From Eledone cirrhosa (Eukaryota): a stretch of 64,000 nucleotides of DNA. The translations under genes and the position numbers were made by a program. Shown here in pieces: positions 2,651-56,376 of this stretch. The stretch spans positions 212,164,001-212,228,000 of the forward strand of contig OZ024742.1 in the NCBI GenBank assembly GCA_964016885.1, in the 5' to 3' direction. Each line of letters starts with the position of its first letter. Within the stretch, counting starts at the first letter, position 1. The notes under the pieces are model-generated. The model had not been told where the DNA came from and made no database searches. It saw nothing but the letters and a program-made list of their open reading frames with translations.

Positions 2651-3090
2651 ACCTCCAATAATAATAATAATTGTTTCTACGTTTGGCACAAGGCCAGCAA
2701 TTACCCAGTGCATTACTGGTACTTTATTTTATTGACCCCATAATAATTGTTTCTACTTTAGGCACAAGGCCAGCAATTACCCAGTGTAATACTGGTACTT
2801 TATTTTATCGATCCCATAATAATGAAAGGCAAAGTTAACCTCGGCAGGATTTGAACTCAGAATGGCAAGGGCCGTAACTCTATACGTCAAAGCATGGCGT
2901 CCGACCCTCTACCGATACTGCCAATCCACCTCCAATAATAATAATTGTTTCTACATTAGGCACAAGGCCAGCAATTACCCAGTGCATTACTGGTACTTTA
3001 TTTTATCGACCCCGTAATAATAATAATTGTTTCTACTTTAGGCACAAGGCCAGCAAATACTCAGTGCATTAGTGGTACTTTATTTTATAT
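2651..3090 (-). mobile_element. SINE cluster: one near-complete copy plus three tandem copies of the 3' module
   Basis: Module ttgtttctac..ggcacaaggccagcaattacccagtg..ctggtactttatttta occurs 4 times. The head with a B-box-like gagttcaaatcc (minus strand) is at about 2847-2930. Confidence 0.85.
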
Positions 3091-3385
3091 GAATCCTAAT
3101 AATTAACTGACTTACTTAAAACCCTATTTCAACAAACTGATCTAAATTAACTCAATGATAGTACATTGTACAATACAGTATATAAAACGCAAAGCACAAA
3201 AGTTGATATGATTTCAATCTTATGTTAAAAAAAGAAAATTACAAATTTTTAGTATAACTATAATATATTTGACATTAGTCACAAGTATAAAAAGAAGTTC
3301 TACTTTCACCAGAAATTTACACTTATTTTTACCAATAACGAAAATATGAAAGGCTAAATTGATTTTGATTGGAATTGAACATGTT

Positions 3386-9198: not shown

Positions 9199-10882
9199 TC
9201 ACATCCACTCTTCCCTGCTTGCAAGGGTGGGACGGGTCTTATTCAGCACAGCATCTCTCCACTCGTCACGGTCCTTCGTCATCTCCACCGTGAGCTTCAA
9301 CGATCTGAGGTCTGTTCTCACCACCTCCGCCCATGTTTTTCGTGGTCTACCTCTACCACGTCTTCCTTCAACTGGCATTTCCTGGCACTTCTTCACCCAT
9401 CGGTCATCCTCTTTGCGCATCACATGTCCATACCACCTCAGTCTCCTCTCCCGTACACTACATTCTATCCCTCTCAGACACAATTTCTCTCTCAACACAT
9501 TCATGTTGGGTCGTTCACGCACATTTACACTGCACATCCAACGGAGCATGCTTGCCTCATTTCTCTCTAGCCATCGCATATCCTCTGCAGTTGCTGCCCA
9601 TGTCTCACTACCATGCAGCATCGTGCTCCTCACAGAGGCATCATACAACTGGCCTTTCGTACGCAGGGAGAAACCCTTCTTCGTCAGCAGAGGAAGCAGC
9701 TCCCTAAACTTCTTCCAACCCGTCCTTATTCTAGATACTATGGCCTCGGAACACCCTCCTCCCATGCTAATCTGATCTCCTAGGTACTGGAAGCTATCCA
9801 CCACTTCTATAGCACCCTCCTGCATTTGAAAAATGTGTCTATCAATGCGACTTCTACTGTCTAATTTCCCTGTACATCTACTGCATACATATTTCTCCCT
9901 ACCTGTTAGTTTGCCTGCTATCCCGCTACATCTCTTGTGTACCCAGGATCTGCATTGTGTGCATTTTATAGAATTTATGCCAGTTCCTTTTCTGCATATC
10001 AAACATGGCCATTTCCCTGACGGAATCAGAGTTTTGTCCCCTTTTCTACTCATCAACACTTTTGTCTTAGCTAGGTTCAATCTCAGTCCTCTTGCTTACA
10101 ACTGCTGTTTCCATAGCCAGAATTTATTCTCTCGCTCCTCTACTGATTCTGCTATAAGAACCAGATCGTCAGCATAAGTATAGTGGCTTATTTTTCTCTA
10201 AGAACCTCTCTTGCAATTGTCTCACCAAGAAGAGGGCATCTGTTGTACTCTTCCCAGGCACAAAACCAAACTGCATCTCATCTAGTTTGACCCTTTCTCT
10301 AATTAGTTGTGCTAATATCCTTTCTGCCACTTTCATAACCTGATCCATCAGTTTTATACCCCTATAATTGCTCCTCTCCAGAGCATCCCCTTTACCTTTG
10401 TAGCAATTTATGAGAATACTGCTGCACCAGTCTTTGGGTACGACACCACCATATATAGCCTGATTGATGATGCGTGCAACCAGTTTAGTGCCTACGTCCC
10501 TTGATGCCTTCAGCATCTCAGCAACTATTCCCGATGGTCCAGCAGCCTTACCATTTTTTATTTCCTTAATCGCCTCTTGGACCCTATATTCGTCAATCTC
10601 AAAAGCTGGTCCCTCTGTCGGATCTACTAAGGGTAATTTCTCTCTCTCCCATTCGTTCTCCACATTCATCAGTCTCTCATAATGACATTTCCAGGCCTCC
10701 TTTTTCTGGTCATTCGTGACAGTAAGTACACCGGCATCATTCCGGACACATTTATCTCCAACAACATCCTGATTTGCATTGACACACTGCCTTGCAATGT
10801 GGAACACTGCACGCCTCTGATCTTCCCGTCGCAGAACATTGGCAAACCGCCTACTCTCAGCCTCCCTGCGTGCTAAGTACAC
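9199..10882 (-). pseudogene. RTE ORF segments 2-3: reverse transcriptase with inserted PHD-like Cys/His finger
   Basis: Two ORFs in different frames. CLIC..CTQC..WVHKRC..CSRC lies between the YADD region and YLG. Confidence 0.9.
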
Positions 10883-10998
10883 CTGACGTCTCGCTTCTCT
10901 CTTAGCGGCTGTATATTCTTCCCTACTCCCACCCTTTTTCCAAGCCTTCCATGCTAGTCTTTTGTCTCTAATGGCCTATCTACTGTGCTGTTCCACCA

Positions 10999-11967
10999 TC
11001 AGGTCACTCTCTGTCTGGTTGGAGCTCTGCTCCAGCCACAAGTTTCATCAGTAGCCTGTAGCAAGTTGTCACGTAAGAAATTCCAGTTATTATCTATGTC
11101 ATACATCTCTAAATCGTCATATACATCTTGAAGGGCTTTCCTAAATTTGTATTTTAGTGAAAGGTCTTTTAGCTTCCAGACCTTTCTTCTCCACACCTTC
11201 CTGTATGTCTCATTCCATCTCTTGCATACTGAGATATCACTAACGACTAACTTATGCTGTGGAGTACATTCTTCCCCAGGGTATGCCTTGGTATTAGACA
11301 CTATCTGCCTGTCCCGCTGCCTAACTAGTAAGAAGTCAATCTGGCTTATGTGCTCACCAGATTTGTAGGTTATTAGGTGATTGGCAGGTTTCTGGAAGTT
11401 TGTGTTGCAAATAGTCAATGTACCAGCATCACAAAATTCAAGAAGTCTCACTCCTTCATTTCTTGAACCGTAACCGTGCCCACCATGTACCCCAGTGTAA
11501 CCATCCTGGAGCTGTCCAACATGACCATTGAAGTCCCCTGCTAGCATAACGATGTCTCCGTCCTCTGTCATTGCGGTTGTTTGTAAAAGTTGCTCGTAAA
11601 AGCAGTCTTTCTCCTCTTTGCCTAGGCCTGCTTGGGGAGCATAGGCAGAGATGATTGTCAGTAGTCTCCTGCCTACAACTAATCTAAGCTTAATTATTCG
11701 ATTACTAACTCGAACTACCTCTATTGTCTTACTGATCCATTTCTCAGCCAGGAAAATGCCTACTCCCCCTAACCCATCATCCTTACCTACCCATAAACTA
11801 AAGCTAAGATGTTTGCCTACAAGTCTCGCAGAGGCACCTCTCCATCTCACCTCTTGCAGGCAGCACACATCCACATGCCTTCTCTCCAGCATCTCCGCTA
11901 TTTCAGCAGATCTACCTCTGAGAGTGCCAACATTAAGTGTTGCAACTCTGAGATGCGACATCTTCAT
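10999..11967 (-). pseudogene. RTE ORF segment 1: apurinic-like endonuclease domain
   Basis: 322-aa ORF with exonuclease-endonuclease-phosphatase motifs; ends by frameshift at the RVT/WW motif. Confidence 0.92.
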
Positions 11968-12442
11968 ATTTTATTGTTGTTCCTATTTGTTGCTGTGCTG
12001 ATAAGCGTTTTGGCATTGATACACTGGTTGGATGCCTTTCCTAACACCAGCGCCACTTTACAGCATGGACTGGGTGCTTTTATTTGTGCTACCAGCACTA
12101 GAGAGGATGTATTACTAGACTCAAGGGCCCTCTCTACCCCTCCATTTTACAGCACGGTCATAACCCCCCACCCCCCCAAAAAAACCCATTTATTGACACG
12201 ACACACACAAACACTCATGCATACAAACTACAAACACACACGCCACTCACACACCAACACTCATTCATGCATACAAACACACACACCACGCACACACACA
12301 CATATATATATATATTACCAGCAGTACTGATACAAAATCAAAATCATGTCAACTGTTGACTTTTCCCAGTCCAGTTCAGTTTTTATATAATAATAATAAT
12401 AATTATTATTATATATAATATATATATATGTATATATATATA

Positions 12443-12578: not shown

Positions 12579-12801
12579 TGAAAGCAGCGATTCTTTGCTT
12601 AAATTTTAATCTGTTACTTTAATATATATATATTCGTGTACAGATATTTTTGCATACACAATAACAAAATATAAAGAAACGTATTTATTTCACGAGGCTC
12701 AATAAGGATAAATATATCTGTACATGAATATATAATTATATATATATATATATATATTAAAATAACAGATTAAAGTTTAAGCAAAGAATCACTGCTTTTA
12801 C
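12579..12801. repeat. Foldback/MITE-like inverted repeat
   Basis: aaagcagcgattctttgcttaaattttaatctgtta..gtacagatat is mirrored by atatctgtac..taacagattaaagtttaagcaaagaatcactgcttt; part of the arm recurs at 52891-52915. Confidence 0.75.
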
Positions 12802-18746: not shown

Positions 18747-19509
18747 GCATATTAAATTACAGAAAATCTGAGACAAGTAAAGGACCAATTGGTAGGATCT
18801 TTTTATAAATTTGGAGGGAATGAAGACAATGTGACAAAATAAAAAAATTGTATACAAGTGACTAAACACGGCATCAAAAATAACTAGTGGAATTTGTAAA
18901 AAAACAGGTCTACATCAAAGAAACATAAAAGTAAGAATAAACAAAGCAGCATTAACTAAAGTAAAAATGTCATTCCACTACAACAGTATTCACAATATGA
19001 TCAATTGATTCTAAAACATTACTTCCCGTCATATTTGATAGATCCAACAGGGTTATGAAGTAAATAGTTAGATACCTAATTCTTGTGTTAGTTAAGTATC
19101 AATAAATATTCAACTCAACAGTATGAATTGTTCATCTTAAACTTTCTGAATATAAAAATAAACGTGGCACTAGAGAAACTTAGGAGAGGTTACCGACCTC
19201 ATTGTATATATAGTTTTGGTGTGACAGGAAACATGGCTATATTTTATATATTCAGGAAGATATTTCAATAATGTTTCATCTATTTATATTTCATATTTAA
19301 CTTTTTGTATACAGCATAAGTAAATCATTTATTTTTTCGCAATAAACTGAGAAGTAGATGTTTAAAAAAAAGTTGTTCATAGCTGAATCTGTTTTCCACC
19401 TTCAATAATATATTTGTATTGCTATTACAATTTAACACAATCCATAATAGAAGAAACCCACGACCACCGTCACACACAAGTTAGGAGCTATCACTTTAGT
19501 ATAATATAG

Positions 19510-19696
19510 TTGTTTCTACTTTTGGCACAAGGCCAGCAATTACCCAGTGCATTACTGGTACTTTATTTTATCGAACCCGTAAGGATGAAAGGCAAAGTTA
19601 ACCTCGGTGGGATTTGAACTCAGATCATACAGGGAGGTAACTCTATGCTTCAAAGAATGGCGTCCGACCCGCTACCGATAATGCCAATCCACCGCC
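19510..19696 (-). mobile_element. Full-length tRNA-type SINE with target-site duplication
   Basis: Flanked by ttta(g/a)tataatatagt at 19495-19510 and 19697-19712; has A/B-box-like head on the minus strand. Confidence 0.9.
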
Positions 19697-19884
19697 TTTA
19701 ATATAATATAGTGGCAGTAAAATAATGCACTCTCCTCCCGCCCTCAAGCAGGGAAAAGTGGACGTAAAATGATGATGAAGATGATATTTTATATATATTT
19801 ATATATATACATATTTATATATATTATATATATACATATATATATTATATATATACATATATACATTATTTATATACATATGTA

Positions 19885-20370
19885 TTTAAGTAACAGCTGT
19901 ACTAAGAGTGGGAAATGAAATTTTGTTTCATTTTTTCCGTTTATAGTTTTCGGTGCACCCGGCCGATTAACCCACTCGATATGCAAATTGGGCTACTCAG
20001 CCATTAATATGCATAAGGAAAGTATATACTTTCGGACGTTCAACTATCTGACAGTAAGGTATACGTTGCTGACGATAGCTAACAAGCTAGAAACTAGTAC
20101 AGCGTTCCTTTGTCAGTGTTGAACAAACGAGCAACGGTGGTTGCCAGACACTACGGCTTAATACGGGATGTTTGTTTACAAACACACCGAGCATTATAAT
20201 AAATGTTCGGTGAATCCAGACGTACATATATATATATGTGTGCATGTATATATATATATATACATACTACTGTACATCTGTATACATATATGTATGTACG
20301 TGTACATACTTATATTTGAGTAACAGCCTTACTAAGAGTGGGAAATGAAATTTTGTTTCATTTTTCCATT

Positions 20371-20374
<4 letters not shown>
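19885..20374 (+). mobile_element. 430-bp-period non-coding element with terminal direct repeats and one hammerhead (retrozyme/Penelope-associated type), inserted in (TA)n
   Basis: taacagc..actaagagtgggaaatgaaattttgtttcatttt at 19891 and 20321; CpG-rich interior; HHR at 20063-20105. Confidence 0.75.
20038..20124 (+). ncRNA. Type I minimal hammerhead ribozyme
   Basis: Stem I ACGUUG/CAGCGU; core CUGACGA (20069-75); stem II UAGCU-AACA-AGCUA; GAAA (20090-93); palindromic stem III A-CUAG-U; predicted cleavage after GUA at 20099. Stem I is extended by AAGG/CCUU, CUGACA/UGUCAG and GUUCAAC/GUUGAAC. Confidence 0.9.
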
Positions 20375-21880
<1,506 letters not shown>

Positions 21881-22322
21881 AAGGCGGGTAAAATTCCCGA
21901 GATCCATGGACGCGTTCTCTCCAGCGGTCTCTGTCCCTCATTATCACTGCCATGTCCTGCATCTCCAACAGACCAGTGTCTGACCTTAGGGCATCAACAT
22001 ACGTCAACCTTGGTCTTCCTCTTCCAGTGTGTCCATGTAGGGGCTCCCAAAGGAGCACTGAGTGCAATGTCAACTCTGGATGTCGGTGAGCATGTCCAGC
22101 TAACCTCAGTCTCCTGTGTCACTTTTGAGCTGATTTTTGGGATGCTCCCATATAGCTCTGAGTTTTTCATCCTAAAAGACCAAGGTTAACATATGTTGAT
22201 GCCCTAAGGACAGACACTGGTCTGTTGGAGACGCAGGACATGGCAGCGATAATGAGGGACAGAGACCGCTGGAGAGAACGCGTCCATGGATCTCGGGAAT
22301 TTTACCCGCCTTAGATAGATAG
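21881..22322. mobile_element. RTE-like LINE 3' end (second family) present as an inverted duplication
   Basis: The minus strand encodes [36 protein letters not shown]. 21881-22017 is mirrored by 22176-22312, followed by an (AGAT)n tail. Confidence 0.85.
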
Positions 22323-29939: not shown

Positions 29940-31020
29940 ATAGTCGTACATCTAATTGCAATATCAGTAAAAGAAACAAAGTTAATGCAGTTTAAATGTA
30001 GGATAATATTTTAATTTATTATTTTGCATAGGAGAGTAGATCTTAGGGCTAGCTTTTTGTTAAATTAAATCTACATATGATATACAAACCATCTCAAATG
30101 TGCTGAGGATATTCTAGTGAAGTTATATTGATATTTTGTAAAGGATTTGACTATAAAGATAAAAACCAGTTTTTATGGTGTAGTCTACACTAAGTAGAAA
30201 ATATATAGTTTTCATGAGTGGCTGTTAGAGACTAAAAAAACAAAATTTATATGAAGCACTATGTTCAAGTTGTATATTGTTTGTGAGTGGAAGAGATACA
30301 ATCTTATGAGTTTGTGTCCTTGAAATGTTTTAGATCTATTAAAAGAAAGTCAGTTATCAGGTCAAAATTGCAAGATGTTTTGGAGGTACTTATTTCTTGT
30401 GGGAGTGGTTGAAGTTACACAAGGTTGATGTTTATGTGTGAAAAGTGAGGTAGGATGAAGAGTGAGGTCAACAAGGCAAGAGTGTACAGTGTACATAACT
30501 TAAGGTAACTGCACTTAAATAGATGTAGAGAAAAAAGAAGACAGAGGGTAGCTTGGGAGCTTCTAATCCAAATGTAACAATGAACCAAAACTTCTTTTTC
30601 CAAAGATATGTTCAAAAGCTTTTCTTGTGTCAAGAGCAACAATTTGCTCTTGCCAAATTTCTTAACAGCAAGTGGCTATAAATATCTCCAGTAGACATGA
30701 TTTTATAAAATTCATGGTAATGGTCATTGAGTAAGGAAAGAGATTTAAAGTGATTTAAGAGGTAGAGGATTATGAACATTGCTTTAAAAGTGAGAACAAC
30801 AAGTAGTTAAAATTTGAGAATATTGGGCTGCTAATTTAGAAAGATTGTATTTCTTAGTCATGGAATATATAGATGCATGTTGAAATATGTACCAAAGAAG
30901 AAGCAAAATTAAAGAGTTTGGTGAAAGAGTTTAGACCTGTAGTTTTAGAGTCATAATGTTTGTTGAGTCCAGTTGCATTTTAGAGACTTTAGAAAATGTT
31001 GCACTAACCATTTGTGAACA
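29940..31020 (-). pseudogene. Very degraded CR1-like LINE remnant
   Basis: ALDTRKAFEH (about 30610-30640) resembles the RT motif ALDISKAFD; the rest is heavily decayed. Confidence 0.4.
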
Positions 31021-41000: not shown

Positions 41001-41745
41001 ATAGTGTATACCATAATCTATTACATAGAAACCCCATAATACAACTGTTACAGCTTGATGATGTCTGTCATCCCAATACCAGTAACTGGTGTAGGCTAGT
41101 GGTTGGTATATTGGGAGGTGGCGGCAGAAAATGGCATACATAGTTTAACTCTTTTTTTAAGTGCTCTGGATCAGATCTTTAGGGTTGATTGTAGGAGTAT
41201 GGTTTACATTTGCTCAGGTTTGTGGTTGGCTTTAGTTTAATTCTGGTTGTATTTACATTCAAGTTAAGATAATTGGTGGTCTTAGTTAAATACAGACAGA
41301 AATATGTGTGATCCTGGTTATAAGCATAATTATTGTTCTGATAGAACTATTATTATTTTAGAAATAGTGTGAGAATCACAATTTGTTACAATGTCTTCCT
41401 TGAACAAGAACTCTAGTCATTCTAAATTAATGGCCATAAAATGAAAAAAAAAATATGGAAAGTTACAGCTCACACCTATGCAGGTTTAACTGGCCTTCTA
41501 CAAAGTTGCATCTCATAGGAGGTTTCTTTGGAGTTTTAATGTTAGGAACACTCAGAGCTATCACGAAAAACAATATGAAATTAAGCATCTTGCTCAAAAA
41601 CGCAATGTGCTGCCTGGTCCAAGAATCAGACCCACAATCCCATGAGTCCAACATCCTAACTGCTAGGCCATACACTTTCACTAATGGGCATGTGTTGAAT
41701 TGAAGCTCCAAATATTTTTCTTAGTTAGCTTCCATTTTGCAGCAC

Positions 41746-41885
41746 AGTTACGTCCCTTTACGGACTGAGTTCAAATCCTGCCGAGGTTAACTTTGCCTTT
41801 CATCCTTACGGGGTCGATAAAATAAAGTACCAGTAATACACTGGGATAATTGCTGGCCTTGTGCCAAAAGTAGAAACAATTATTT
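41746..41885 (+). mobile_element. 5'-truncated tRNA-type SINE
   Basis: Reverse complement of 46852-46985. Confidence 0.88.
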
Positions 41886-43899
41886 TAACTGCTTTTCTTT
41901 CTAGCTTTAGGCCACACCACACACATGGCACATTGATAGAAAGATAATAAAAAAAAAAGTTATCAGTTCAGGTAGCAACCAACCAACTGGGAAGTATACA
42001 CTATAACTTCTGCATTTTTTTTTTTCTATTAGTTTAAACTAAAAATGGAAAAACAATAACGGCTTTGTTCTGAATTAAGATATTATCTATAATGTCCAAC
42101 TTATACAATATTATTTTTTATTCATGCAATTATAAACCAGAATGATATAAAAATGGTGAATATCTTTTTTTTAATGCTGACTTTATTTCAGAAAGGGAGC
42201 TTTAAGAAATAATGATATAAATAACTTAAACTTAATGCATAACACCTATTACCAGCTTAGCATCTGGACCAAAGGGGTTTATTTATTTATCATATGAATT
42301 ATGGTTTATGATTTCCTGTTCAGTTTATAGAGAAAAATATCTATCAACATTAATGCTTCACTTCTCACTCTTCCAGGGTTCCTGAAAAAGTGGGAAAGCG
42401 GGGAAAAAAAAATGAATAAAAAGAGAAAACAACAATTTTGTAACATTCTTTCTGATTTCCTTGGAGGCAAAAAGCAGCAGGCTGTTGTAGACAATGTGAT
42501 TTTGTTGGTGTTTTACTGAGAGACACTTCAAGAAAATGTTTCTCAGCTGTGCAAAGCTTACTCATATGTTCTTAACACCCCCACCCAAATAACAAATTTT
42601 GTTCTTTTGCAGCACCCAAAATATAGTTCCAGGGGAAATTGTGTTAGGGGGTTTTGGTAACATAGGAATGATAGTAGTAACATTTAATGAAAAGAGAAGC
42701 AACAACTATTTACATGTAGCATACACCTTTAAATATTGTAATTTATTTTCTAGTTATTAAGAATTAATTGAAAACACATATTCTTATTTTTTATGAAGGC
42801 TTGCAGTAAATCGAAATAGGAAATAGTTGCAAATATAAGTATAAAAAAATAAACCCTATCTGTCATTTATTTATTACTGATGCTATATATTGAATGAATA
42901 CTTTTAAATAGAAAGTAAATAATGTTCATTGTGGAACTGAGCATGGACTTGAAACATTAGTAATAAAAACAAAAAGAAATAATAATAATAATCATAATTA
43001 TTATTATCATTATCGTGTTACTATTACTACTATTTATTAGTGTTGCTATTTTCACTACTATTTTCATGTATGACTCATCCAGATTGGCATCAATGCAATA
43101 GCAAATAACCCAGTGATGCTGTAGCTATAGCTGTGACTGCTAAAATCAGTAGTAGTAGCAGCAGCAATGGTAGTCCATTCAGCTTTTATCTGCGCACCTT
43201 TTCAACCTTTTCTCTGAAGAATAAATGTTTACACCCAACATACACTGAGAAAGAAAATAACTAACTACCATCTTTAAATCATTGATAACTTTAGTTATGG
43301 GATAGCAAGATAATTTAACTTGAATTGATTTCTTAATTTAAAAATGGGGCAAATATTAAAATTCCATGTTAACATTAGTATGTGATAATATTGTTAAATG
43401 CCGCAATGATTTTACTAAATTCAGGAAATAAATGTGAAAATGTTTTAATTCAGACAGCAACAATTAAATTTTAAAGGATAACTTATTAGCAAACAAACGT
43501 CTTGTATACAACTATTGTTATTTTTCTTTCTATTCAAGGGAGGTTAAATGAAATCAATTGATTGGAATTGCATAAGCCAAAACCATAAATAACACTTGTA
43601 TTTCTAAGTACACAAAACATTTTTATTTATAGAATTAAATTAAACTAATTATAGACACAACTATATATTGACAAGTTAAAAGTTTGTTAGGTAGTGAGAC
43701 TAGATATAAACATAGATTTGATTACAAATAGGAAGAAAGACTAGCACAACATACAGTATTAAAAATAATTGTGTATACAAGGCTAATATCAACTATGTTA
43801 GTGCTGTGCACGGTAGTTTAGTGGCTACTCTAGCAAAGTGTGAGAACCTTTCAATCATCATTAAGTGATTGTGCAATACCTTTCAGATACACAGAGCTA

Positions 43900-46181: not shown

Positions 46182-46851
46182 ATCATTTATTTGTAGACTT
46201 ACTCTATATATTTTTTCTCTGGCAATATTAGGACAACATGACCCTCCCCAAATATAACAATATCTGTTTCAACACACGACTTCATATCAAAAACCTTGCA
46301 AAACAAATACATTGCCGCTGTTTGTAAATTAATTTTCAAACATAACTAGAAACAAAAGGTGTTGATATAACTGTGTAACACCTTGGGTAAGTACCTGTTA
46401 GTATAGCCTTGGGCTGACCAATGCTTTGTGAGTGAATTTAGTATCAGAAACTGTAAGGAAACTTGTATAAATGTATTCATTTTGCATTTCACGTTGCCAG
46501 CACAGGCAGTGATGTTTGTTTATTTCCCACATAAACAGTTGTCCTGATGATGATGATTTGTAACTAAATAAGAATTACTATTTATAAATAAGCAACCTAT
46601 CTAAATTTACTTTCACCTTATCAGCTAACACAGAATTTCTTTTCCAAAGCTCCCCAGTGTGACAAGCGCATATACTATGGAAGACCATACTAGATACAAA
46701 TATGTTTCAGTAATACTAACCTGAAGATTTACATGATAAACACATGGCAGATAATATATAATACATTTTATACTCGGAAACTATGGCCATTATGGAAAGG
46801 AATGCATAATTTGAATCATTAAAATGCATAAAAGAAGTTAAAAGTAATAAT

Positions 46852-47033
46852 TGTTTCCACTTTTAGCACAAGGCCAGCAATTATTCCAGTGTATTACTGG
46901 TACTTTATTTTATCGACCCCGTAAGGATGAAAGGCAAAGTTAACCTCAACGGAATTTGAACTCGGGCCGTAAAGGGACGTAACTATGCTAGAAAGCATGG
47001 CGTCCAACCCTCTACCGATACTGCCAATTCACC
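46852..47033 (-). mobile_element. tRNA-type SINE with 17-bp target-site duplication
   Basis: aagttaaaagtaataat at 46835-46851 and 47034-47050. Confidence 0.92.
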
Positions 47034-51988: not shown

Positions 51989-52041
<53 letters not shown>

Positions 52042-52419
52042 TTCTTTTTTCTCATAGTTTCTATCTTCAAAACCCACTCACAAGACATTGGTTGGCCTGA
52101 GGTTTTAGTAGGACATACTTGCCCAAGGTGTTATGCAGTATGATTGAACCCAAAACAATGTGGTTTTAAAACTAACTTTTCACACCTATGTCTGCATCTA
52201 AAAGTAAATTGTATGAGCCACTAAGGCCAAATAAAGGAATCCTTCATTGAAATTTGAAAAATAAATGACATTGAGTAAATGAACTTCTAAAGTAATTGAG
52301 AAATGGATATATGGTAAATGAAAGTAGCAATTACAAATTTATATGCTGCTCAAAAGATAAATAAATTAGAAATAACTTAAAGGAGTACACAAAAGATGTA
52401 GTGGGATCTCAGAGGGGCT

Positions 52420-52689
52420 AACAAAGAATGTAGGTTTGACTTGTGGTCAGTTCACAAGGGCAATAAGTAGCAAGAACCCTCAATATACAACCGCCTTCAA
52501 ATGCTCAGAGGGTTCGGCCAAAGTGGTAGATAGTTTCCGTTGCCTGGGTGACCAAATCAGTAGGAAGGGTGTTCTGGAATTACAGTAACGAGAGTGGTTG
52601 GAGAAAGTTCAGGGAGCTACTACTGTTACTAACTACAAAGGGGGTTTCCCTCAAAATGAAAGGCAGACTGTATGATACAAACAGTAATG

Positions 52690-52747
<58 letters not shown>

Positions 52748-52865
52748 CCGCCAGACAGTCCTATGCGAGCAAGACAACCACTCTTGCCTCAAGTGGGAAA
52801 ACCCCCGTCCAAACCCATGCAAGCGTGGAACACGGACGCTAAACCTGATGATGATGATGATGATA
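52420..52865 (+). mobile_element. RTE RT fragment interrupted by (TA)n and followed by a family A 3' tip
   Basis: VVDSFRCLGDQIS..GWRKFRELLLLLTTKGVSLKMKGRLYD; 52746-52863 matches 16393-16510. Confidence 0.85.
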
Positions 52866-52984
52866 TCTATATATGTATATATATATTTATTAAAATAACA
52901 GATTAAAGTTTAAGCTTATCGAGCCCTCTTTCGATTTTAGTTTTCAATTTTATTATTATTACTATGTATATATATATATGTATA

Positions 52985-53301
52985 TACAATATTAAATAAA
53001 TGGAAACTATATTTATAAAACCATATTTATTTCATTATATATATTTCAGGGATATCATATTAACAATATGCTATGCCTTCCTCAGAAAAATACAATATAA
53101 ACAGTTTTGAATCTGCCAATTCAACTTTTCAAATACAAGTCGATGTTGTTACGGTATGTCAAATCTATTTATCTATAAAACTGTTTATATTGTATTTTGT
53201 CTGAGGAAGGCATAGCATATTGTTAATATGATATCCCTGAAATATATATAATTAAATAAATATGGTTTTATAGATATAGTTTCCATTTATTTAATATTGT
53301 A
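52985..53301. repeat. Foldback with about 124-bp inverted arms, each carrying a hammerhead-like motif
   Basis: 52985-53108 is mirrored by 53177-53301. CUGAGGA (53201-07), long stem II, GAAA (53239-42), then UAUAUAUA. Confidence 0.8.
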
Positions 53302-53387
53302 AATATACTCCAAATACTTGTCGAGTGCTTTTATATCAGTTATAAATATTTACTAGTTGTAACCCAACAATTTAAATATAACTTTCC

Positions 53388-54616
<1,229 letters not shown>

Positions 54617-55517
54617 GTTGGCAGACCTCGCAAGGACTCTATATCTTTGATATATTGTTTTTGTTTATGCCACGAAACTACGTAGTCGAGGAATTTAGGA
54701 GCAGTTTAGGTATGATACATTTTATTACCAATTATATCTAAATGTTTCTTCTCTCTTCATAATGTATTTTTAACTCTGATACTGGTTCAGTCTGGTTCAA
54801 ACTGAACTGGTCTGTCCCAGTCATTCATTGAGCAACATCGGTGAAGTTGGCACCCTTAACTCGCAGTTGGGTGCGGATGCATTCATGTATATATGTGTGT
54901 GTCCGCATGTATCTGTGTGTTTCTAAATATATTAATAACTCCCTCTGGTCGAGCAATCTTTGAAGTGTGGGGACAACTGGAAAGCTTCCATTACTCGTAC
55001 TTCTCGCCTTCTTCACTACCTCTTCTACGGCCTCGATATGAATACCCCCTCCGCCTCCGTGGTATTTTCTTCGTGGTTATAAGAGGCTTAGCTCTGTTTC
55101 TCGACCGTTATATCGCGTGACTATCTCCCCCTCCGCCTTTTGGGATTCTTTCTCACGTCGTGTAGACGCGTTCTTGAGACTAGTAAAATGAGGTATCCTC
55201 TTGATAAGTTGGCAGACCTCGCAAGGACTCTATATCTTTGATATATTGTTTTTGTTTATGCCACGAAACTACGTAGTCGAGGAATTTAGGAGCAGTTTAG
55301 GTATGATACATTTTATTACCAATTATATCTAAATGTTTCTTCTCTCTTCATAATGTATTTTTAACTCTGATACTGGTTCAGTCTGGTTCAAACTGAACTG
55401 GTCTGTCCCAGTCATTCATTGAGCAACATCGGTGAAGTTGGCACCCTTAACTCGCAGTTGGGTGCGGATGCATTCATGTATATATGTGTGTGTCCGCATG
55501 TATCTGTGTGTTTCTAA

Positions 55518-55523
<6 letters not shown>
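54617..55523 (+). mobile_element. 1.5 tandem units of a 591-bp non-coding hammerhead-containing repeat, inserted in (TA)n
   Basis: 54617-54932 appears identical to 55208-55523 (offset 591); HHR at 55196-55283. Confidence 0.85.
55196..55283 (+). ncRNA. Type I hammerhead ribozyme, U3-A8 core variant
   Basis: Stem I UCCUC/GAGGA; core UUGAUAA (55201-07); stem II GU(U)GGCA/UGCCAC with a long loop; GAAA (55265-68); palindromic stem III A-CUACGUAG-U; predicted cleavage after GUC at 55278. Confidence 0.75.
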
Positions 55524-55560
<37 letters not shown>

Positions 55561-55567
<7 letters not shown>

Positions 55568-56376
55568 TGGAATAAATGCTCTGAAACAGCGATATATATG
55601 TGAATATAGACATAGAATATTCGAAAATATTCTGTATGTTTATAATAAACATTTTGAAGACCCAATCGCTATAGAATAGAATACGTCACGTATTACAATT
55701 AGATTCTCGATAAAAGCAAGGGAAGTAAATCTACGCGTTTCATTCTTATTAGAAATCGTCAGGACTACATATCCAGTGCTTTCATCGAGAATGACACAGC
55801 TAGAGACTTATAGAACACTTAGCTGTGTACAGGAACTGGTTTGAAAGAGCGGTTGCCGGTCCGGCAGAAATTAGAAATTGGAATAAATGCTCTGAAACAG
55901 CGATATATATGTGAATATAGACATAGAATATTCGAAAATATTCTGTATGTTTATAATAAACATTTTGAAGACCCAATCGCTATAGAATAGAATACGTCAC
56001 GTATTACAATTAGATTCTCGATAAAAGCAAGGGAAGTAAATCTACGCGTTTCATTCTTATTAGAAATCGTCAGGACTACATATCCAGTGCTTTCATCGAG
56101 AATGACACAGCTAGAGACTTATAGAACACTTAGCTGTGTACAGGAACTGGTTTGAAAGAGCGGTTGCCGGTCCGGCAGAAATTAGAAATTGGAATAAATG
56201 CTCTGAAACAGCGATATATATGTGAATATAGACATAGAATATTCGAAAATATTCTGTATGTTTATAATAAACATTTTGAAGACCCAATCGCTATAGAATA
56301 GAATACGTCACGTATTACAATTAGATTCTCGATAAAAGCAAGGGAAGTAAATCTACGCGTTTCATTCTTATTAGAA
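55561..56376 (-). repeat. 2.6 inverted copies of the 311-bp hammerhead unit
   Basis: Reverse complement of the downstream array. Complete HHRs at 55725-55768 and 56036-56079; a third is truncated in stem II at the junction. Confidence 0.95.

Follow-up and report, generated by a model that had tools for sequence, protein, structure and literature searches.

A 907-bp insert in a (TA)n tract of Eledone cirrhosa, carrying the same non-coding sequence at both ends, raises the question of how a unit came to be copied into the genome slightly more than one and a half times. The first-pass annotation had attributed the duplication to reverse transcription around a circular RNA or to the formation of a Penelope pseudo-LTR. 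We examined the insert within the window, i.e., the whole stretch of 64,000 nucleotides that was analyzed. Self-comparison of the window recovered a direct repeat identical at 316 of 316 positions (54617-54932 versus 55208-55523) with a lag of 591 bp and a single-copy spacer of 275 bp (54933-55207), as had been claimed. The insert corresponds to 1.53 units, and the predicted unit has a GC content of 42%. The fusion of both ends to TA runs and the coordinates of the two GUC sites (54687 and 55278) were also confirmed. No other non-simple match to the 591-bp element and no second copy of the unit were found in the 64-kb window, and the evidence base is thus one locus. The features are as follows.

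53388-54616, no strand: (TA)n tract on the left, interrupted by scattered G and presumed to be target DNA (1229 bp; 559 A, 615 T, 55 G and 0 C)
54617-54932, + strand: first copy of the 316-bp repeat (copy 1), which lacks everything 5' of G10.1 in helix II and comprises half a ribozyme (helix II, GAAA, palindromic helix III, GUC at 54687 and the 3' arm of helix I) plus tail A
54688-54932, + strand: tail A, the 245 nt 3' of the predicted cut site, with a strong fold predicted on the + strand only
54927-54932, + strand: internal 6-nt alternating AT run, predicted to be unpaired, at which copy 2 ends in the target
54933-55207, + strand: spacer B, single-copy and CpG-rich, its last 12 nt being the 5' arm of helix I and the ribozyme core
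55196-55283, + strand: complete predicted type I hammerhead (descriptor scan and constrained fold, without an Rfam match)
55208-55523, + strand: second copy of the 316-bp repeat (copy 2), with which the insertion ends on its 3' side and which has 6 nt in common with (TA)n
54688-55278, + strand: predicted 591-nt unit between the two GUC sites
55524-55560, no strand: 37-bp TA spacer, followed by the inverted arm of a 311-bp array

Spacer B contains 17 CpG dinucleotides with an observed/expected ratio of 1.14 (versus 0.17 for positions 26001-52000), and none of the 197 tiles of 275 bp in positions 1-54000 reached this count (maximum of 12). The spacer is therefore CpG-rich as reported, but this property is not specific to it: the unit of the neighboring 311-bp array is CpG-rich as well (ratio of 1.35), and we thus take the CpG content as a sign of the youth of the insertion. 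A putative promoter role for spacer B is possible. Two exact copies of a 12-nt C-rich word occur in the spacer near 55045 and 55127 (55045-55138), which we take to be GC-box-like on the minus strand and, presumably, possible promoter elements.

The claim that the element bears no credible ORF held. In the circularized unit, each of the six frames is interrupted by 6-14 stops per turn with the longest stop-free stretch being 86 codons, and no Pfam match was detected for the frames of the element. Protein searches returned nothing for the 86-aa frame on the + strand, compared at similar lengths, or for the 83-aa frame on the - strand, compared at longer lengths. In a full-library scan, the former gave two weak matches to repetitive bacterial-type proteins (E-values of 3e-4 and 8e-4), both of which were rejected as chance. 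The Pfam scan covered 145 of the 191 frames of at least 45 aa to the right of 26 kb, two short frames of the element, and 109 of the 155 frames to the left of 26 kb. Among these 256 frames, neither a GIY-YIG domain nor a reverse transcriptase (RT) of Penelope-like elements (PLEs) was detected; the scan yielded the remains of APE-type LINEs and weak sub-threshold matches only. The ORF with RT and GIY-YIG that characterizes an autonomous PLE is accordingly absent from the frames scanned, and the 275 bp upstream of the ribozyme contain no ORF remnant. PLEs are able to retain introns. A donor-like GT is located 22 nt past the cut site, and a candidate branch point and acceptor follow approximately 81 nt on (54710-54790); the GT-AG intron candidate starting from the donor-like site at 54710 gave no PLE-like frame with any acceptor and was discarded. 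A scan for sigma-70 promoters, which are irrelevant to this host, stayed at the chance level, and the exact 25-nt pattern of the ribozyme had no match in prokaryotic genomes.

The predicted hammerhead, for which we presume the position numbering U3-A8 and G10.1-C11.1, possesses a helix I of 5 bp (55196-200/55279-83) and a core at 55201-55207, in which U3-A8, a rare variant, replaces C3-G8. Helix II comprises 6 bp with G10.1-C11.1 and one bulged U, and is closed by a 44-nt loop 2 with a hairpin inside; GAAA and a helix III made of a 10-nt perfect palindrome follow, and the cut is predicted after C55278. As the 5' arm of helix I and the core constitute the final 12 nt of spacer B, the ribozyme straddles the boundary between the spacer and the repeat, implying that the start of the repeat is a truncation and not the end of a terminal repeat. 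One complete ribozyme is predicted, not two: only the GUC at 55278 is accompanied by a complete predicted ribozyme, while copy 1 lacks the 5' arm of helix I and the core.

The descriptor used to search for the hammerhead was composed after the motif had been seen. In 3000 shuffled units, it found no match when the helix lengths were set as observed and 2 matches when they were relaxed. No match was found in the whole window at the Rfam gathering threshold. When E-values up to 10 were allowed for positions 52000-57500, 79 matches were returned, none of which was a hammerhead and all of which were under the gathering score; most were TA-driven miRNA models. A relaxed window-wide descriptor scan gave 24 matches, all of them within three repeat elements that are embedded in TA and exceed one unit in length (22 in the 311-bp array and the others in the 591-bp element and an element near 20 kb). 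A stricter scan missed the ribozyme of the 311-bp array and produced an extra weak match at 30103-30212, which was absent from the relaxed scan and was treated as chance. The constrained hammerhead fold lies 1.6 kcal/mol above the local optimum and costs approximately 8 kcal/mol in the full unit. With only one complete ribozyme, the release of a 591-nt monomer from this locus requires that one core cuts both sites. The fold models leave it possible that the single core could reach the upstream GUC via paired palindromes (fold energies of -282.8 for the double-hammerhead, -284.5 for the cis fold, and -292.9 without constraint), an arrangement described in PMC4209133. As it holds a single catalytic core, the 591-bp copy is probably a dead-end daughter.

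The RNA of the unit is predicted to be more structured than its shuffled versions, with a z-score of -5.9 for the linear + strand and, in the circular form, -5.6 for the + strand versus -0.9 for the - strand. Tail A carries this signal (z of -6.7 on the + strand versus -1.9 on the - strand; 19 of the 87 pairs are G-U), which persists after the removal of a hairpin of TG repeats (z of -5.4), and none of the 80 background tile-strands reached a z of -4. These predictions support a function of tail A as + strand RNA. On the other hand, spacer B is no more structured than shuffles (z of -0.8), and joining it to tail A gains -4.9 kcal/mol, a value equaled by 33 of the 100 shuffled spacers and thus not significant. 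Folding models therefore give no support for tail A and spacer B being one natural RNA.

The 3' end of the insert falls on the internal alternating AT run, predicted to be unpaired and located directly after a long hairpin, 239-245 nt past the cut site; alternating AT runs of at least 6 nt cover 22 of the 591 break points of the unit. The 5' end is found at G10.1, the base of helix II, where the target and the unit match at 5 of 6 nt, and the boundary is consequently ambiguous by a few nt. It had been claimed that copy 1 starts exactly at stem II. The copy does begin at G10.1, but the exactness is lost in this ambiguity, and microhomology explains the position equally well. Comparable target microhomology is available at 42 of the 591 positions of the unit, including G10.1, and we thus do not take the coincidence with stem II as evidence of a mechanism; target microhomology is the simpler explanation. 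Microhomology-mediated 5' joining has been reported for a rotifer PLE (PMC3846280). A target-site duplication is unreadable within (TA)n. Fixed ends of homologues had been proposed to count against the involvement of a circular RNA or a PLE, but this expectation was mis-set, as PLE copying is expected to leave fixed 3' ends and variable 5' ends even from a circle.

Two further hammerhead elements reside in the window.

55561-62590, no strand: 311-bp hammerhead array of 20 direct units plus an inverted arm of 2.6 units (descriptor scan and tiling)
approximately 19890-20374, no strand: third, older hammerhead element between TA tracts (motif at 20069-20099; period of approximately 430 and a short diverged terminal repeat)

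Among the direct units of the 311-bp array, 19 of the 20 tiles are identical and the last tile differs at the junction. The outer ends of the array differ by 40 nt (31-40 nt given the TA ambiguity), the outer end of the inverted arm being the longer one, and this 40-nt tail extends through the internal TA run of the array, which shows that TA runs can be present where a true unit ends. PLE hallmarks are partial tandems, inverted 5' copies and a tail of 30-40 bp (PMC8557442; PMC3846280), the last of these reflecting two sites within the RNA at which the RT starts (PMC11167929). The 311-bp array shows both the inverted arm and the 40-nt tail. These two features are optional in PLE-derived insertions; the 591-bp element itself ends in a single 3' terminus and lacks an inverted copy. 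The two units have no common sequence beyond chance words. As the two elements point towards each other with their 3' ends, a common event would call for nicks on both strands of the target; separate insertion events thus appear more likely than a shared one. The folded tail of the element at 19890-20374 has a z-score of -5.8 on the + strand and -3.9 on the - strand. Altogether, PLE-type copying has likely acted at this tract, recently so for the 311-bp array. An inverted repeat at 52981-53305 with arms of approximately 130 bp contains a degenerate hammerhead-like motif that was recognized by eye and had no scan match, and it is possibly a decayed pair of PLE ends.

More probably than not, the 591-bp unit is young, non-coding and dependent on a PLE, and its template was an RNA that was continuous across the cut site. 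The insertion into (TA)n was likely recent and carried out by the RT and the nickase of a PLE, and the partner was probably of the Hydra clade or similar, with Neptune as another candidate. In this process, a source locus elsewhere would be transcribed as a multimer, which might be cut by the ribozyme and ligated into a circle of 591 nt. The GIY-YIG nickase of the PLE would nick (TA)n, and reverse transcription would initiate internally, on the unpaired UA run that directly follows the structured tail (239-245 nt beyond the cut site). Copying back through the ribozyme would yield one full unit and 71 nt beyond the next cut site, and the cDNA would finally be joined to the target via the microhomology of 5 of 6 nt, truncating copy 1 at G10.1. 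In a published system, nicking of AT-rich DNA by the PLE RT and initiation at an RNA-internal position on the downstream side of the ribozyme have been described (PMC11167929).

If the insert arose in one copying event, it crosses the cut site twice without a mismatch, and a single cut linear monomer of 591 nt is thereby excluded as the template. A circle and an uncut multimer are about equally probable as the template; the two give identical DNA, and the locus thus cannot show a circular RNA. The original inference of circular RNA or Penelope-type copying therefore stands in part: the PLE-like ribozyme and target and the exclusion of the cut linear monomer agree with it, but the circle itself does not follow, as a multimer or a template jump gives the same DNA. 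A more specific scenario, in which the PLE RT ran 1.53 times round a 591-nt circular RNA, primed by nicked (TA)n on the unpaired UA run, with the single core of the divergent hammerhead cutting both sites, is put forward tentatively. A circle model for PLE copies of more than unit length was proposed in PMC4209133, and circles of retrozymes have been demonstrated in coral, mussel and axolotl (PMC7229834). The circle step is weakened by the anole PLE, which mainly used uncut RNA in vitro and of which ribozyme mutants inserted normally (PMC11167929), and by the Xenopus dimers, 8 of 9 of which showed no cleavage in vitro (bioRxiv 10.64898/2026.07.22.740005).

A rather unlikely alternative, although the most serious one, is that the insert consists of two 5'-truncated 3' ends (316 and 591 bp) of a longer, probably autonomous PLE, which came to lie head to tail either through a template jump or because a second insertion entered the TA beside the first. 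The internal AT run would then be leftover target and the 591-nt period accidental, though it could seed a new retrozyme. The junction between tail A and spacer B lies exactly at the 6-nt AT run and the two show no structural coupling, both as expected under this alternative, and the predicted fold of the ribozyme, which has no extended helix I, corresponds to the minimal PLE type. Most PLE insertions are 5'-truncated (PMC8557442), and retrozymes have been proposed to arise from PLE ends (Li et al., bioRxiv 10.64898/2026.07.22.740005). This explanation is opposed by the lack of an ORF remnant upstream of the ribozyme, by the two other hammerhead elements of the window, both of which are also short copies of more than unit length, and by the tail of the 311-bp array, in which a true unit ends with a TA run. 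A local DNA-level duplication with a deletion, or an assembly error in this microsatellite-rich region, is improbable. Identity is 100% at a single locus, and the flanking (TA)n of more than 1 kb and the perfect 6-kb array are hard to assemble, but a simple tandem duplication produces an AA rather than an ABA order, both junctions show target microhomology, and there are sibling elements of the same design. A TRIM or a plant-type LTR retrozyme, with two 316-bp LTRs around a 275-bp internal region, is largely refuted and can hardly be the answer: the size suits TRIMs, which are shorter than 1 kb with two identical repeats (PMC10886601), and the minus strand has a purine run of 8 nt at a distance of 6 nt from the repeat, but the ends and flanks on both strands do not present the combination of TG..CA, PBS and PPT (TG..CA ends common to both 316-bp copies are lacking on the two strands, the 5' repeat is not followed by a TGG-type primer site, and no tRNA gene was found), and the ribozyme, which is of type I, is interrupted by the boundary of the repeat.

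Copying of a non-coding unit by a PLE, the reading that we prefer, can be compared with the known systems. The (TA)n target is reported for the Hydra, Neptune and Naiad clades; Naiads are described there as lacking canonical hammerheads and as leaving old remnants in cephalopods. In the supplement of PMC8557442, 26 of the 27 listed Hydra families target (TA)n, 23 of the 26 ribozyme rows have a 4-bp helix III starting with AC and a loop of 1-2 nt, and Octopus bimaculoides possesses a complete family, Hydra-1_Obim. The 3' ends of the Hydra clade (Craig et al. 2021, PMC8557442) resemble the 591-bp element in the (TA)n target and in the sense-strand hammerhead near the 3' end; our motif can be parsed with a 4-bp helix III starting with AC and a short loop, and the base of its helix II (G-U...A-C) is as in several Hydra rows. 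On the other hand, the 591-bp element lacks the RT-GIY-YIG ORF, its U3-A8 has no counterpart among the 26 rows, its loop 2 is 44 nt long versus 3-10 nt, and its end, 245 nt past the cut site, is further away than in the listed families. The ribozyme of Hydra-1_Obim, like those of all the other rows, differs in sequence from our motif, and short-motif searches of the supplement, in which line wraps may hide matches, gave no true match to the 591-bp unit.

PLE hammerheads include those with U3-A8 cores, palindromic helices III and bulged helices II (PMC4209133). Cercyon of Schistosoma (Cervera and de la Pena 2014, PMC4209133) shares U3-A8, a short helix I (4-5 bp), the conserved G10.1-C11.1 and a palindromic helix III region with the 591-bp element. 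The latter differs in a longer helix III and a much longer loop 2, and has a bulge just inside helix II in place of the extra nucleotide that precedes helix II in Cercyon. Poseidon PAc of Anolis (Frangieh et al. 2024, PMC11167929) likewise targets AT-rich DNA and has the 3' end of its inserts at an RNA-internal position past the ribozyme, but the end of the 591-bp element differs in being 239-245 nt past the cut site and in sharing 6 nt with the target.

Like the metazoan non-LTR retrozymes (PMC7229834; bioRxiv 10.64898/2026.07.22.740005), the 591-bp unit is non-coding, has a GC content below 50%, bears a predicted type I hammerhead, lacks LTR, PBS and PPT, and is predicted to form a self-paired monomer RNA, the signal for which comes from tail A; mobilization of circles by PLEs has been proposed for those retrozymes and may apply to this unit as well. 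However, the 2026 preprint requires two complete ribozymes, while the locus presents 1.53 units with a single complete one, and the ribozyme is of a minimal, PLE-type design with U3-A8 and a 44-nt loop 2. The 311-bp array fits the definition of non-LTR retrozymes better than the 591-bp element does. The unit, said by the first-pass annotation to be larger than the other units here, does exceed its neighbors and the 150-450 bp of PMC7229834, but lies within the 51-972 bp reported for retrozyme families in the preprint (bioRxiv 10.64898/2026.07.22.740005). The partial tandem with a 5'-truncated upstream copy, the PLE-type hammerhead in the sense orientation and the (TA)n target are all as in PLE-derived insertions. 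Thus, we classify the locus as a non-coding PLE-type partial-tandem insertion, neither an active non-LTR retrozyme nor an autonomous PLE, and predict from the models that it works like a PLE-mobilized unit of the retrozyme type.

Pseudo-LTR partial tandems, circles as templates for copies of more than unit length, and retrozymes as PLE derivatives have already been published. In the literature library that was searched, we found no description of hammerhead-bearing non-coding units in octopus. If the proposal is true, octopus has several recently mobile and mutually unrelated hammerhead-bearing non-coding units that depend on the PLE machinery and target (TA)n. Circular and multimeric templates could be told apart with the help of identical young copies whose ends can be read, and the natural U3-A8 core, named in a single paper of the library searched, offers material for assays. 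If the circle reading is true, octopus, with the 311-bp array only 37 bp away, would allow a test of the proposed step from circle to genome in animal retrozymes.

Regarding the genomic context, a coding exon of RAPGEF1 (C3G) was identified at 14091-13906 on the - strand, encoding residues 9-70 with 98% identity to the Octopus vulgaris protein, which marks the window as octopod. A search that tolerated up to 3 mismatches did not locate the codons for residues 1-8 anywhere in the window. A first intron longer than 50 kb is thus implied, and we infer that it probably houses the 591-bp element, in the antisense orientation relative to RAPGEF1. The inverted arm of the 311-bp array contains two ribozyme motifs, both on the strand of this gene. 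Among the other repeats, a broken APE-RT LINE with a PHD-like finger occupies 9199-11970 on the - strand, and many short 3' fragments are found elsewhere, at approximately 8.0-9.1, 16.1-16.5, 23.8-24.8, 43.8-44.5 and 52.5-52.9 kb. A dispersed SINE-like family is represented at 320-416, 2660-3100, 19500-19700, 41740-41900 and 46840-47030, some copies having short tandem duplications of the head. The regions 12597-12782 and 52863-52915 have a short sequence in common that abuts TA runs in inverted and direct copies, and these are possible termini of another TA-targeting element. Finally, a GC-richer segment between TA tracts at 21882-22312 contains an apparent head-to-head inverted pair of a LINE-like 3' fragment.
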